Assembly (NCBI RefSeq): GCF_011045215.1
Contig: NZ_CP049201.1
Length of the DNA: 64,000 bases
From: Escherichia coli
GTDB taxonomy: Bacteria > Pseudomonadota > Gammaproteobacteria > Enterobacterales > Enterobacteriaceae
Reading direction: 5' to 3' (one strand)
In this document: positions 59,901-63,904 of the stretch, piece by piece
Position numbering within the stretch: position 1 is the stretch's first letter
Layout: each line of letters starts with the position of its first letter
Translations under genes and position numbers: made by a program
The notes under the pieces: model-generated
Told to the model about the DNA's origin: nothing
The model's database searches: none
Seen by the model: the letters and a program-made list of their open reading frames with translations, nothing else

Positions 59901-62900
59901 ATGGACTTATTTGACCTGTTAACAATTAAATTTACCTTACCCACGAAAACAGTCCCTGCAAAAAAAGTGGGTGGGAATTTTGTTCATAAGTTACTTTGCC
60001 GAGCAACGACTGTTACGGTTCAAGTCAGAAATGCACGTTTCCAAGGATATTTTGAACTTGTTACGGGTCTAAAGCCCCCTCTGGACTATGTCTATCTGAA
60101 AGATCCAAATTCTAGGGGGAAATGCGCAGATGGTGTAGCTTCACTTAAAGCTAAGGAACCATTTACATTCGAAAAATGGCGAGAAGATACTGAGTTAAGC
60201 TGGGAGCAATTTCCAGAGCAGGTATTTAGCACTTCACCTAATGAAATTAATGAACAATGGCATCATCAATTTCAGTTTAGAGAGGACGATCCAGAGCGCA
60301 ATTCTCCCGGTCTCAGAAAACCCCAACTGGGTGCACTTCATGCAATTGCAGGCTATTTCGCCACTGATTTGCAGGTAGAACCTGCTACCGTCGTACTGCC
60401 CACTGGAACGGGAAAAACGGAAACAATGCTGGCTACCATGATATACCAGCGATGCGAGCGAATTTTGCTCATAGTCCCATCTGACTCTCTCCGAACACAG
60501 ATATCCAAAAAGTTCATCGATTTAGGATATTTGCCAGAGCTAACAGTCGTTCCACCCAACATTGCACTCCCTAATGTCGCCATTATTAAGAAAGGAATTC
60601 AGGTAGCGGAAGAAGCTAAGCAATTAGCTTGTGAATCAAACGTCTTGGTTGCTACGACCAGCGTTTTGTCTGCCTGCTCCGAAACAGCATTAAATGCACT
60701 TTGCGAGTCGTGTAGCCATCTTTTTGTTGATGAGGCTCATCATATCTCAGCCTCATCATGGCAGACAATTCGCAAACGATTTAAAAACAAACGTGTAGTG
60801 CAGTTTACAGCCACCCCTTTTAGGAATGATAAAAAGTCCCTTGGTGGGAAAATTATCTATAACTACACGATGGGGGAAGCCCAACGAGCAGGCTATTTTA
60901 CAAATGTAAATTTGCTGCCTGTAGAAGAGTATTACTCTGACCTTATGGATCACGCAATCGCAGATAAAGCTGTTGGTCAACTACGTATAGACTTAAATAA
61001 TGGCCTTGATCATTTGCTTATGGCTCGTACTAGCAATAAGCAGCGAGCAGAAGAAATACTGACTATTTATCAGAATATTGTACCGAACTTTAATCCAATC
61101 GTTATTCATTCTGATTATCCTAAAACGGAAATAAAAAAACGTCTTAATAAATTATTATCAAGACAATCAAGAATCGTTATTTGCGTAGACATGTTGGGAG
61201 AAGGCTATGACCTACCCAACCTGAAAATTGCCGCTTTGCATGATCACCATAAGTCTCTTGCAGTAACTTTGCAGTTCATTGGCCGTTTTACTCCTGTCAA
61301 TAAAGCACAGAAAATTGGTCAAGCCAGTGTAGTCATGAATGTTGCAGACCCTAATGTTGAAGGTGAATTACAGCATCTATATTCAACAGATGCCGATTGG
61401 GATAACGTATTAAGGCGACTCTCTGAAGGACGAATTGCTAGAGAGATTAGGTTGCAAGAGGTCGTGGATGCCTTAAAAAGGAAAGGTGATTTACACGATC
61501 AGATCTCTCTCTGGAACCTTGAGCTAAGTTGTTCTGTCATGTTATTTAAAACATACTGTGACAATTGGGAGCCTGAAAGATACAAGGAAAAACTGCCCAG
61601 ATTCGATGAATCATGGCATGCAATAGCAGAAGATGAGAATTTGCTTGTTGTGCTAGCTGTCCAAGCAACTTCAGTCCGGTGGGGAAGCTACAAAGATCTT
61701 AAAGATACCAATTATAAAATTCTAATTGCTCATTGGGATCAAGACAGATCCGCTTTGTTTGTATTCTCAAATGACTATAAAGCATTTCGAGTTGAGAATC
61801 TAGTCAGTGCTATTTGTGATGATAAATTTGAAGTTGTCAGTGGTGAAAAAGTCTTTAATGTATTTAATGGTATTGAATATCCTTTAGCAAGAAATTTAGG
61901 CGCATCCCAAATTGGAGCAATCAGCTTCACTCAATACTTTGGCCCAAATGTCACTGAGGGGCTATCACTAATTGAAGCGTCTCAATCAAGCCTAAGCAAT
62001 ATTGCTGCATTAGGCTATGAATCCGGAAACCGTGTAATCTGGGGATGCTCGCAACGCAGAGGTAAGGTCTGGTCACCACAAAAAGGTGGCAGCATTGCTG
62101 ATTGGTGCAACTGGGTTAAGAAAGCTTGGGACAAAATTTTTAGTTCTGAGCCGGATCCAAACAACCTTACGCGTAACTTTTTACGCCCTGTTTCATTACT
62201 TGAACCATATAATGAATATCCAATATCAGCTCAATGGGGTGAATATTTGCTTACTGCGTTCGAAGATAAAGTTATTTTTCATTTTGATTCTATATCAGCT
62301 CACTTATATTTAGTAGAGGTGAAAACTGCTGGAAAGTTTGACGATGGCAATGTGCGGCTCATTTTTTCTACAGATGAAACTTCATCTGAATATAAATTAT
62401 GTCTTACAGGTAGTACTACAGCAAAAGGTTATGCCTATCAGTTGATTTCCGGCCCTGAAGTCTTTGTACAGCGTGGTGAATCTGAACCTGTATCACTATC
62501 AGAATATATGGAAATTGATCCAGTAATGATTCATTACTCCGATGGCTCATTTTCTCACAACGCTCATATAGTTCATGTAAGCCAAAATATTGGCCTTTAT
62601 GACAAAGACGAAATTGTAGCTTTTGATTGGAATGGAACTGATGTTCGAGTGGAATCAATGGGCTATACTCGTGATCCATCATCCATCCAGTGGCGTTGGT
62701 ACAGTGAAATTAAAGATAATTACGATGTTATTATTAATGACGACGGTAAAGGTGAGTCAGCTGATTTAGTTGGTTTAAGAATAGTTGATGACTGTATTGT
62801 TCTCTCTTTAATCCATTGCAAGTATTCAGGCTCAGAAGAAGCTGGAGCAAGACTTAAAGATCTTTACGAAGTATGTGGACAGGCACAGAGATGCATTCGT

Positions 62901-63182
62901 TGGAAGCACCTGAATCTTTCCTATTTATACCACCACATTAAGCGTCGCGAGGAACAGTGGCGATCGCGTGGTTATTCTCGATTTCTAAAAGGCACTATAA
63001 AAGACCTTGCAGCTATGAAAGAGCGCTCCAGAATCACACCTCTTAAATTCCGAGTTGTTATTGTTCAACCAGGACTTAGAGTAAACAAAATTAATGAAGA
63101 AGGCCTTAAGTTACTTGGTAGTACGGCCTTATTTATCAAGAAAACAACGATGGCAGATTTAGTTGTTATTGGTTCTAAATAG
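59901..63182 (+). CDS. Large SF2 helicase (ResIII/DEAH-type) with about 600-aa uncharacterised C-terminal half
   Basis: 1093 aa, starts 7 bp after hsdS with GAGGT RBS; motifs LPTGTGKT (I), LFVDEAHH (II), FTATPF (III), QFIGRFTP (VI-like); C-terminal region has no motif recognised with certainty (possible nuclease-like D...HxK segment near ESADLVGL...IHCKYS). Confidence 0.8.
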   Translation: MDLFDLLTIKFTLPTKTVPAKKVGGNFVHKLLCRATTVTVQVRNARFQGYFELVTGLKPPLDYVYLKDPNSRGKCADGVASLKAKEPFTFEKWREDTELSWEQFPEQVFSTSPNEINEQWHHQFQFREDDPERNSPGLRKPQLGALHAIAGYFATDLQVEPATVVLPTGTGKTETMLATMIYQRCERILLIVPSDSLRTQISKKFIDLGYLPELTVVPPNIALPNVAIIKKGIQVAEEAKQLACESNVLVATTSVLSACSETALNALCESCSHLFVDEAHHISASSWQTIRKRFKNKRVVQFTATPFRNDKKSLGGKIIYNYTMGEAQRAGYFTNVNLLPVEEYYSDLMDHAIADKAVGQLRIDLNNGLDHLLMARTSNKQRAEEILTIYQNIVPNFNPIVIHSDYPKTEIKKRLNKLLSRQSRIVICVDMLGEGYDLPNLKIAALHDHHKSLAVTLQFIGRFTPVNKAQKIGQASVVMNVADPNVEGELQHLYSTDADWDNVLRRLSEGRIAREIRLQEVVDALKRKGDLHDQISLWNLELSCSVMLFKTYCDNWEPERYKEKLPRFDESWHAIAEDENLLVVLAVQATSVRWGSYKDLKDTNYKILIAHWDQDRSALFVFSNDYKAFRVENLVSAICDDKFEVVSGEKVFNVFNGIEYPLARNLGASQIGAISFTQYFGPNVTEGLSLIEASQSSLSNIAALGYESGNRVIWGCSQRRGKVWSPQKGGSIADWCNWVKKAWDKIFSSEPDPNNLTRNFLRPVSLLEPYNEYPISAQWGEYLLTAFEDKVIFHFDSISAHLYLVEVKTAGKFDDGNVRLIFSTDETSSEYKLCLTGSTTAKGYAYQLISGPEVFVQRGESEPVSLSEYMEIDPVMIHYSDGSFSHNAHIVHVSQNIGLYDKDEIVAFDWNGTDVRVESMGYTRDPSSIQWRWYSEIKDNYDVIINDDGKGESADLVGLRIVDDCIVLSLIHCKYSGSEEAGARLKDLYEVCGQAQRCIRWKHLNLSYLYHHIKRREEQWRSRGYSRFLKGTIKDLAAMKERSRITPLKFRVVIVQPGLRVNKINEEGLKLLGSTALFIKKTTMADLVVIGSK

Positions 63183-63277
63183 GACGAAAAATTGACAGCA
63201 TTCGACTTTAGTAATATTAAACAACGAATTGAATATGCTATAAAAATGATGGAAAAAGCAAGAAAAGAGAGTAAATT

Positions 63278-63904
63278 ATGATCCTATTCTTTTATCCCTA
63301 CATAATGCTTTGCTATAGCGCTGGATACGCTTTATTGCAAACACTGGATGGGATGGGTGTGATTAGTACCAACTTTGTAGGAATGAACGCACAGGGTGCT
63401 CTTTTGAGCAGTTACTGGTCTCCCAATAAAGTTGCTGTAGTCTTAGGAGGATGTTTTCTTGAGCTTGCCAGAAAAAAGGGACTCATCATTTGTTTTGTTC
63501 TTCTTATAACCCCTGGCCTGTTATCGTTCTGTCACCTTCTTCCTGCTATCCAGTGGTTGCCATTGACCTATGAAATAGGAGGTACAGGTGCAATGGGTAA
63601 CGCAGCTGGACTCGGAAGTCTTAGCTTCATAGGGCTATTGAGTGGTTGGGTTTTGGCAGTAATCATTAGTGATATTTTTGCTACAGGGGAGAAATTCAGA
63701 CAGTGGACAGATATTTTCCTAATACCAACAGCAGTTGGTAACGGTATTTTCTGGGTATCAGACAGAGAGGTGACTGTCGGTAAAACCGCACATGAGAAAA
63801 CAATTACGGATATTAATGATGCAGCCAAATACCTTCTTTTTCAGGTGAAAGGCTACAGCCGCATGTGTGACAATAACGGGCTTACCGATATGTCATCTTG
63901 TTAG
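63278..63904 (+). CDS. Multi-pass membrane protein of unknown function
   Basis: 208 aa with several hydrophobic helices; about 95 bp downstream of the helicase gene, same strand. Confidence 0.45.
   Translation: MILFFYPYIMLCYSAGYALLQTLDGMGVISTNFVGMNAQGALLSSYWSPNKVAVVLGGCFLELARKKGLIICFVLLITPGLLSFCHLLPAIQWLPLTYEIGGTGAMGNAAGLGSLSFIGLLSGWVLAVIISDIFATGEKFRQWTDIFLIPTAVGNGIFWVSDREVTVGKTAHEKTITDINDAAKYLLFQVKGYSRMCDNNGLTDMSSC

Follow-up and report, generated by a model that had tools for sequence, protein, structure and literature searches.

The stretch of Escherichia coli DNA analysed here, referred to as the window, comprises 64,000 nucleotides of contig NZ_CP049201.1 (assembly GCF_011045215.1) and carries close to its end a gene for a putative helicase-nuclease of 1093 amino acids (aa) which is attached to a type I restriction-modification (R-M) operon. 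As stated in a preliminary description made from the sequence alone, this open reading frame (ORF) follows hsdS directly on the same strand. It occupies positions 59901 to 63182 of the plus strand, as supported by the ORF list, Pfam and the alignment of its family, and starts six bases past the hsdS stop codon, which ends at 59894. The identical protein is on record from E. coli (QIF12217.1 and others), and the cluster at 90% identity containing it has 764 members across Enterobacterales. The end-to-end conservation of an ORF of this length in several phyla is much more than chance would produce. Four consecutive regions can be delimited on the plus strand: an N-terminal region with neither a recognised domain nor a Pfam match (aa 1-137; 59901 to 60311), a motor core of superfamily 2 (SF2) type defined by Pfam (aa 138-466; 60312 to 61298), a β-rich multi-domain middle region (aa 476-897; 61326 to 62591) and a C-terminal nuclease-like domain of predicted PD-(D/E)xK fold (aa 898-1093; 62592 to 63179).

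All Pfam matches of the 1093-aa protein lie within aa 138 to 462 (ResIII 3.9e-20, DEAD 5e-14, Helicase_C 3e-7). Motifs I (GxGKT), II (DExH), III (TAT) and VI (QxxGRxxR), which place the protein in SF2, are invariant in the family. The full motif set claimed beforehand, consisting of PTGTGKT, DEAH, TATP and QFIGR, is present in the window copy except that its motif VI, which reads QFIGRFT(P), is rendered incomplete by an R465P exchange considered below. Within the N-terminal region, W101, W120 and F126 are invariant. The domain libraries used were PADLOC (PADLOC-DB of 2023), NCBIfam (June 2026), PHROGs v4 and Pfam-A. The PADLOC matches reflect the generic SF2 core, with PbeA scoring best (1.7e-8) and HamB being a marginal, partial match (0.0065). 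The same core gives rise to the best NCBIfam match, RadD, which at 31.8 bits stays far below its cutoff of 720, and the PHROGs match is phrog_16, “DNA helicase”. A search of the PDB sequences, performed both with the single sequence and with a profile, returned no match outside the SF2 core. Since the nearest solved motor cores retrieved by the family profile are those of XPB/Rad25, SauUSI, RadD and UvrB, the motor can be assigned to the XPB/ResIII-like group. For residues 476 to 1093 no match was obtained in PADLOC or NCBIfam at E<=10, nor in Pfam, PHROGs or the PDB sequences, which agrees with the earlier remark that the C-terminal 600 or so residues resemble nothing recognisable.

The C-terminal 618 residues were modelled with an alignment of 16 sequences, yielding a predicted local distance difference test score (pLDDT) of 81. 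A Foldseek search of the PDB with this multi-domain model was uninformative. Structural matches of the C-terminal part comprise N.BspD6I (score 9.0), FokI (8.7), CdiA-CT EC869 (8.6), HamA of the Hachiman system (7.9) and Shedu SduA (7.4), with LlaBIII, Upx, Can2, Hna, MspJI, Avs4, NucC and McrC as further ones. The last 196 residues modelled alone (pLDDT 95.4; predicted template modelling score 0.92) reproduced this ranking, with N.BspD6I at 9.4, EC869 and FokI at 8.6 each and HamA at 8.2, followed by the small subunit of R.BspD6I (8.1), Shedu (7.7) and NucS (7.4). The nuclease core of this 196-residue model is composed of a helix (residues 32-43), three strands (46-49, 59-65 and 68-76) and a second helix (88-100). 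In full-length numbering, D955 is located just ahead of the second strand, while H972-C-K974 lies at the end of the third. According to these models, aa 898 to 1093 form a PD-(D/E)xK fold which is closest to the cleavage domains of FokI and N.BspD6I and to the defence nucleases HamA and Shedu, and the helicase-nuclease architecture suspected in the preliminary description is thus recovered at the level of predicted structure. For the middle region the structural resemblance, namely to TBP-like folds, CENP-N/L and RdgC, is weak.

A D...HxK segment had been singled out beforehand as a degenerate PD-(D/E)xK or an HKD-like nuclease site. The segment is real, a set of 35 diverse homologues sharing D955, H972 and K974 without exception, and the domain containing it has the predicted fold of the former kind; the HKD (phospholipase D-like, PLD) reading of “IHCKYS” is ruled out by this fold and by the absence of the HxK(x4)D spacing. 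The remaining invariant residues of the C-terminal domain are E918, S919, Q930, D947, D948, G951, E952, Q994, Q996 and K1002. With respect to the catalytic triad, D955 and K974 are found at the expected places while the (D/E) position is taken by the invariant histidine H972, and a PD-(D/E)xK active site in which histidine stands for the canonical acidic residue may represent a further novelty of this family. The presence of this histidine in every member would equally fit a catalytically dead fold retained for DNA binding or sensing, with the protein as a whole acting as a translocase, a remover of roadblocks or a signaller. We consider such a loss of catalysis quite improbable.

When residues 470 to 1093 were used as the query, more than 120 clusters at 90% identity were obtained. 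Their proteins, about 1080 to 1095 aa in length, align end to end with the window protein at 41 to 84% identity and are annotated only as “DEAD/DEAH box helicase” or, rarely, as “type III restriction endonuclease subunit R”. When each species was represented by one genome, 79 loci were obtained, which are spread over Gamma-, Alpha-, Beta- and Deltaproteobacteria, Bacteroidota, Bacillota, Verrucomicrobiota, Gemmatimonadota and Planctomycetota. With a profile built from the final 196 residues, 1577 representatives (clustered at 50% identity) are retrieved at E<=1e-3; at the stricter threshold of E<=1e-30 their number is 363. The top 150 matches all possess this architecture or are fragments of it. 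Plasmids of Streptomyces, Bacillus, Streptococcus and others encode more distant relatives of full length (25-30% identity), and 108 plasmid records, including 61 conjugative ones, contain a relative. The copy of Advenella rides in a Tn7-like element, and those of E. coli reside in tRNA-Leu and tRNA-Phe islands together with integrases. Two very large “phage” records (H23 and H24, Acinetobacter phage MD-2021a, 328-378 kb) hold a distant relative annotated as UvrB, which shares 25% identity over 97% of the C-terminal region. In the open-access full-text literature no paper was found by the accessions of family proteins and none describing the architecture, the keyword results being confined to Hna, Hachiman, Druantia, Upx and DISARM; the main text of the DefensePredictor paper contains no helicase entry. 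A bioRxiv paper on a helicase-nuclease and “forked DNA” was dropped as a match since its subject is Druantia III. The family is without a name in Pfam, NCBIfam, PADLOC and PHROGs and is, as presumed in the preliminary description, uncharacterised.

The gene neighbourhood was studied in a sample of 84 loci whose ORFs were called and clustered by BLASTP. The sole cluster common to all 84 loci is the helicase-nuclease itself; there is no conserved neighbour, and the next clusters in rank are HsdM (13 loci), HsdR and HsdS (12 loci each). In 13 of the 84 loci, 11 of which belong to the 79 species representatives, the genes are arranged on one strand in the order hsdR-hsdM-hsdS-helicase with up to two genes inserted ahead of the helicase. 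Their hosts are Escherichia, Lonsdalea, Cedecea, Pectobacterium, Marinomonas, Methylomicrobium, Marinagarivorans, Geomonas, Vibrio and a deltaproteobacterial metagenome-assembled genome (MAG). The gap preceding the helicase gene measures 6 to 48 nt in eight of the 11 measurable loci (the reference locus being excluded), and the hsd operons of all linked loci contain a single type of HsdR, EcoAI/PRK11448. Compared with the E. coli proteins, the helicase of Pectobacterium is 84% identical versus 42% for its HsdR, whereas the corresponding values for Vibrio are 53% and 52%. From this incongruent divergence it follows that the linkage has survived recombination among diverged operons or has been rebuilt after it.

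In the window, hsdR, hsdM and hsdS are all present on the plus strand, but hsdR carries a premature TAG codon. This pseudogene of an EcoAI/PRK11448-type R subunit (53656 to 57072) is split into two ORFs, both of which match PRK11448 and EcoAI in NCBIfam. The apparently intact hsdM (57136 to 58770) encodes 544 aa, matches the hsdM and MAD2 methyltransferase models of NCBIfam and has a product which is identically on record from E. coli. It overlaps by 4 nt with hsdS (58767 to 59894), whose 375-aa product matches an NCBIfam specificity subunit. The G+C content drops from 0.49-0.55 in hsdR and hsdM to 0.36-0.45 in hsdS, the helicase gene and the downstream membrane-protein gene, just as had been noted before. 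The interpretation attached to it at that time, namely a swapped-in cassette, is upheld inasmuch as the divergence of helicase and hsd genes is incongruent between genomes; against it, intact E. coli islands match the whole block from hsdR to the membrane-protein gene in collinear order, the identity being 95-97%. A pattern scan located a terminator-like G+C-rich hairpin followed by a T run at 57085 to 57104 (plus strand), between hsdR and hsdM. The simple terminator scan revealed no hairpin site between hsdS and the helicase gene, and the Shine-Dalgarno sequence of the latter, AAGAGG, overlaps the end of hsdS. With a hairpin at the first junction and none at the second, hsdM-hsdS-helicase looks like one transcription unit, and the sequence suggests that it is separate from hsdR.

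The conserved order with its very short gaps, its maintenance across at least three diverged lineages of the one HsdR type in spite of recombination, and the signals at the hsdS/helicase junction could be taken to mean that the helicase-nuclease is functionally coupled to the R-M system preceding it, be it as a guard or back-up fired once phage anti-restriction proteins inhibit the R-M complex, in the manner of PrrC and EcoprrI, or as an alternative motor-nuclease which relies on the M2S1 complex or its methylation mark to tell self from non-self. A locus from a Defluviicoccus MAG (L048, 5445-8480 and upstream) points in the same direction, as it comprises a type III Mod, a Res (PADLOC REase_III, 1130 bits) and, 27 nt further on, the helicase-nuclease, whose gene again occupies the 3' end, here behind an R-M system of another type. 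Yet about 85% of the loci are devoid of hsd genes within 8 to 10 kb, and the protein is of full length there. In addition, other defence genes intervene between hsdS and the helicase gene in L018 and L019 (an ATPase gene of cluster c6 plus a gene for about 300 aa), a pattern more in keeping with a cargo hot spot than with a complex, and E. coli pheV islands have kept the helicase while hsdS is deleted and hsdR and hsdM persist as remnants. Judged from these sequences, the stand-alone majority and the islands retaining the helicase after the loss of hsdS argue against an obligatory R-M link, and we allow for functional coupling a small probability. A more specific version would have the protein wired as a guard to EcoAI-type R-M systems, co-translated with HsdS, silenced by or cooperating with the methyltransferase core and set free for DNA degradation once a phage disables or evades restriction, the stand-alone members being derived or ancestral. 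Its chance of being correct is in our view rather slim.

Loci lacking adjoining R-M genes have no neighbour in common, their surroundings being rich in defence genes. Of 20 immediate neighbours sampled from loci without hsd genes, seven match PADLOC models (JetD, HNH, LmuA, CapP, type III Res, type IV-like nuclease). In the sample, one group of defence neighbours includes DruE3, a type III methyltransferase, AbiEi, type IV restriction and WYL proteins; another comprises an NsnB/PDC-M55A-like ATPase, an LmuA-like metallo-β-lactamase protein, PDC-S31 and a CARF-AAA-HTH regulator upstream of hsdR. The association with defence put forward in the preliminary description is therefore borne out, the family being present both in defence islands and beside R-M operons. 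These surroundings also bear on the possibility that the protein is no immune effector at all and instead provides repair, recombination or replication restart to the mobile elements carrying it, for example in the maintenance of plasmids or integrative and conjugative elements (ICEs). Against this speak the patchy distribution of the gene, its frequent pseudogenisation and its location in variable cargo regions, where R-M, Druantia, Wadjet, Lamassu and Abi genes are found beside it. Moreover, the similarity to repair helicases is restricted to the generic SF2 core and far under the family cutoffs, as exemplified by RadD, and the nuclease domain comes closest to restriction and defence nucleases. 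We regard a housekeeping role of this kind as rather improbable.

Some features of the neighbourhoods deserve mention on their own account. In seven loci (L004, L009, L011, L012, L015, L022 and L024; for instance L024:685-2217) hsdR is directly preceded by a gene for a CARF-AAA(sigma-54 activator)-HTH regulator of about 500 aa (PADLOC RtcR_PspF2--CARF_AAA_HTH, E 6e-214). The domain content of this regulator hints at an expression of the type I R-M operon which is sigma-54-dependent and controlled by a cyclic oligonucleotide or another ligand. In the E. coli islands a WYL protein and a GTPase are encoded at this place upstream of hsdR. Behind the gene of the NsnB/PDC-M55A/HEC-03B-like ABC ATPase (about 490-570 aa) there is usually another one for about 300 aa without a PADLOC match. 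These two (clusters c6 and c25), possibly another two-gene defence pair, are situated between hsdS and the helicase gene or just past the latter (L018:5840-7441, L019, L020, L066, L009, L015, L024). DruE of Druantia III (1800-2100 aa, cluster c27) is encoded a few genes away from the helicase-nuclease in L012, L018 and L077, preceded in L012 and L018 by a gene for about 1100 aa whose product may be DruH. Within the window itself, a NERD+UvrD helicase (39945 to 41732; PADLOC C3a187, E 2.5e-141) and an OLD-family ATPase-nuclease (44001 to 45662; E 1.7e-50) are encoded upstream, so that the window qualifies as a defence island beyond the helicase locus. Still further upstream, positions 28905 to 37361 contain co-directional large ORFs (1129, 532, 587, 366 and 178 aa) without any PADLOC match at E<=1e-8.

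Downstream of the helicase gene, separated by 95 nt, a membrane-protein gene extends on the plus strand from 63278 to the window end at 64000. What had been described as a gene for a polytopic membrane protein of 208 aa does encode hydrophobic helices, but the 208-codon ORF (63278 to 63904) is a truncated pseudogene of a gene for about 417-440 aa, the frame of which runs on in register as far as the window reaches. The protein encoded by intact E. coli islands has 417 to 440 residues with three or four hydrophobic helices in its N-terminal part and one near the C-terminus. No model of Pfam, NCBIfam or PADLOC matches the membrane-protein family, which is restricted to Enterobacterales. The adjacency of the two genes in the window had led to the proposal of a two-gene defence module, and the same co-directional arrangement recurs in closely related islands of E. 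coli, Klebsiella, Lonsdalea and Escherichia sp. This proposal fails on wider sampling: the membrane-protein gene accompanies the helicase in only three of the 84 loci, all from closely related Enterobacterales islands with a helicase at least 94% identical to that of the window, and the helicase is found in many phyla without it. Conversely, three diverged homologues of the membrane protein (65, 47 and 40% identity) belong to ICE-like elements, where they are located beside integrase, TraG, genes of the cyclic-oligonucleotide-based system for anti-phage signalling (CBASS) or HNH genes, and in none of these three loci is the helicase present. A two-gene module is accordingly very improbable indeed, and by its distribution the membrane-protein gene appears to be adjacent cargo, not a partner of the helicase. 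In one of these elements, from Serratia marcescens (L088:10047-14201), the homologue adjoins a CBASS-like set consisting of a DncV-like nucleotidyltransferase, a ThiF/E1-like protein and a Saf-2TM-SAVED effector.

Comparison with intact relatives discloses considerable decay of the window copy, and damage to its helicase and membrane-protein genes had been missed in the preliminary description. From position 53174 to the window end the block is collinear with the intact E. coli islands at 95-97% identity, the variable recognition domain of hsdS being its only part without alignment to relatives. The homology sets in just past the place which the WYL gene occupies in the intact island. Where intact relatives have the WYL and GTPase genes, the window contains ORFs for an IS21-like (548 aa) and an IS4-like (471 aa) transposase (49589 to 52750); these insertion sequences mark the truncated left edge of the island, the left flank of which has been replaced. 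That hsdR is dead, as was recognised early on, is correct, although the cause is not a frameshift: a single nonsense codon, TAG at 55615 to 55617, replaces CAG (Gln654) of intact relatives, and a comparison with hsdR of E. coli CU42ET-1, which is intact and encodes 1137 aa, reveals this stop as the only lesion and zero indels. In the relatives L002 and L086, hsdR, hsdM and hsdS are intact. Within the helicase gene, codon 465 (61293 to 61295, plus strand) is CCT (Pro) instead of CGT (Arg) as in four E. coli relatives, by which the second arginine of motif VI is lost. An intact allele of the helicase is WP_087602985.1 of E. coli CU42ET-1. This position is arginine in 34 of 34 other homologues aligned and proline in the window copy alone. 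As the second arginine of motif VI in SF2 enzymes contacts ATP, R465P is probably inactivating, and as several E. coli records contain the window sequence it is not a read error. One more private exchange at an invariant column is P542L. In the membrane-protein gene, a 45-bp deletion near 63465, which removes 15 residues (FILLLPFVFLSSWIL) from within a hydrophobic helix, is accompanied by a CAG>TAG change at 63902 to 63904. The premature stops of hsdR and of the membrane-protein gene are thus both CAG>TAG amber codons and, with R465P included, bring the point lesions in the four consecutive genes to three. Stop codons arise most commonly through C>T transitions. An amber-suppressor host reading through both stops was considered and dropped for want of supporting evidence. 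Judging from its sequence, the helicase copy of the window is probably non-functional, and the island has to be looked upon as a wreck, with three lesions in four genes, which should not be counted as active defence. Further decayed helicase copies exist as split genes in L062, L070, L073, L079 and in a Klebsiella record. The latter (L087, CP125156.1, Klebsiella pneumoniae) has the helicase-nuclease annotated as two coding sequences (526 + 573 aa); it is labelled “plasmid unnamed2” in PLSDB, although this record of 5.37 Mb is evidently a chromosome.

Taking the family as a whole, its genomic context and architecture make a role in defence probable. We favour, with moderate confidence, the interpretation of the protein as an autonomous single-polypeptide helicase-nuclease immune effector which is often appended to type I R-M operons. 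It would act alone against phages or plasmids, its motor loading on invading or structurally aberrant DNA and translocating at the expense of ATP. The nuclease domain would then cut, probably once two molecules meet, an encounter which FokI-type domains are known to require. D955 and K974 would make up the active site, with H972 in the position that is usually acidic. In gamma- and deltaproteobacteria the gene recurs at the 3' end of EcoAI-type hsdRMS operons, and translational coupling to hsdS appears likely there. Owing to this placement and coupling, the protein would be produced together with the R-M enzymes and add a second defensive layer to them; it can do without them, as most members have no R-M system nearby.

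Several observations weigh against this interpretation. Since H972 sits at the second acidic position of the (D/E)xK motif, catalysis is not assured, and the role of the missing acidic residue could fall to E918, D947, D948 or E952. As PADLOC-DB dates from 2023, a recent naming of the family could have been missed. With regard to the window copy, the inactivation by R465P is a prediction from general SF2 knowledge, and two private substitutions at invariant columns are an ordinary count among family members. Finally, SF2 motifs do not prove translocation, as Hna possesses them without unwinding DNA (bioRxiv 10.1101/2025.11.12.688083).

Should the interpretation as an autonomous effector hold, a widespread unnamed single-gene helicase-nuclease would join the catalogue of bacterial immune effectors, with a breadth of hundreds of clusters at 50% identity in at least six phyla as well as on plasmids, ICEs and Tn7-like elements. 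Its C-terminal nuclease domain and its middle region of 420 residues are so far absent from the domain libraries, and the labels “DEAD/DEAH box helicase” and “type III restriction subunit R” conceal a distinct family. As the gene repeatedly comes last in type I R-M operons and does so once in a type III operon, it offers a directly testable case of layered or guarded restriction.

Among known systems, PrrC and RloC provide the precedent for extra defence genes which a type I R-M operon carries within it or at its end and whose expression it shares, as in EcoprrI-PrrC. Both are anticodon nucleases directed at tRNA and are unrelated to the present family in sequence and fold. The guard relationship is known for PrrC while it is only speculative for the helicase-nuclease, which, if wired in this manner, would be the DNA-level counterpart of PrrC-EcoprrI. 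FokI and N.BspD6I, the closest structural matches, share just 9-10% identity with the nuclease domain and hence no sequence similarity; the position of FokI D467 is histidine in the family, and their cleavage domain is joined to a sequence-recognition domain whereas that of the family is joined to a motor. The mechanistic logic proposed above would be shared with Hna, Hachiman, type III Res and type ISP enzymes. The likeness to Hna and type III Res drawn in the preliminary description accordingly stands as an analogy, while the tests place the protein in neither family. Like type III Res, it is a single chain of about 1000 aa which starts with a ResIII-type SF2 motor and ends with a PD-(D/E)xK endonuclease, in its case a putative one. 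Identity with type III Res is rejected since no PADLOC REase_III match is obtained and a BLASTP comparison with the bona fide Res of L048 yields E = 0.03 in motif-sized pieces. Likewise, there is no Mod partner in the window, as had been observed at the outset, and a type III methyltransferase is nearby in only three of the 84 loci, of which the one checked, L048, has a Res of its own. Hachiman differs in consisting of two genes, the nuclease HamA and the helicase HamB, whereas the family unites both functions in one chain with the nuclease at the C-terminus; HamA has an ExK motif (E138 and K140, according to the title of its PDB entry) in contrast to HxK in the family. The Pfam model DUF1837 does not match the family protein, and the HamB model does so only partially (E 0.0065). 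As to Hna, its structure 9yhn is absent from the PDB matches of the family profile at E<=1e-3. Hna is a protein of 845 aa with a DinG/XPD-like core (bioRxiv 10.1101/2025.11.12.688083), whereas the members of the family described here, of about 1090 aa, are built on an XPB/ResIII-like core and possess the additional middle region of 420 aa.

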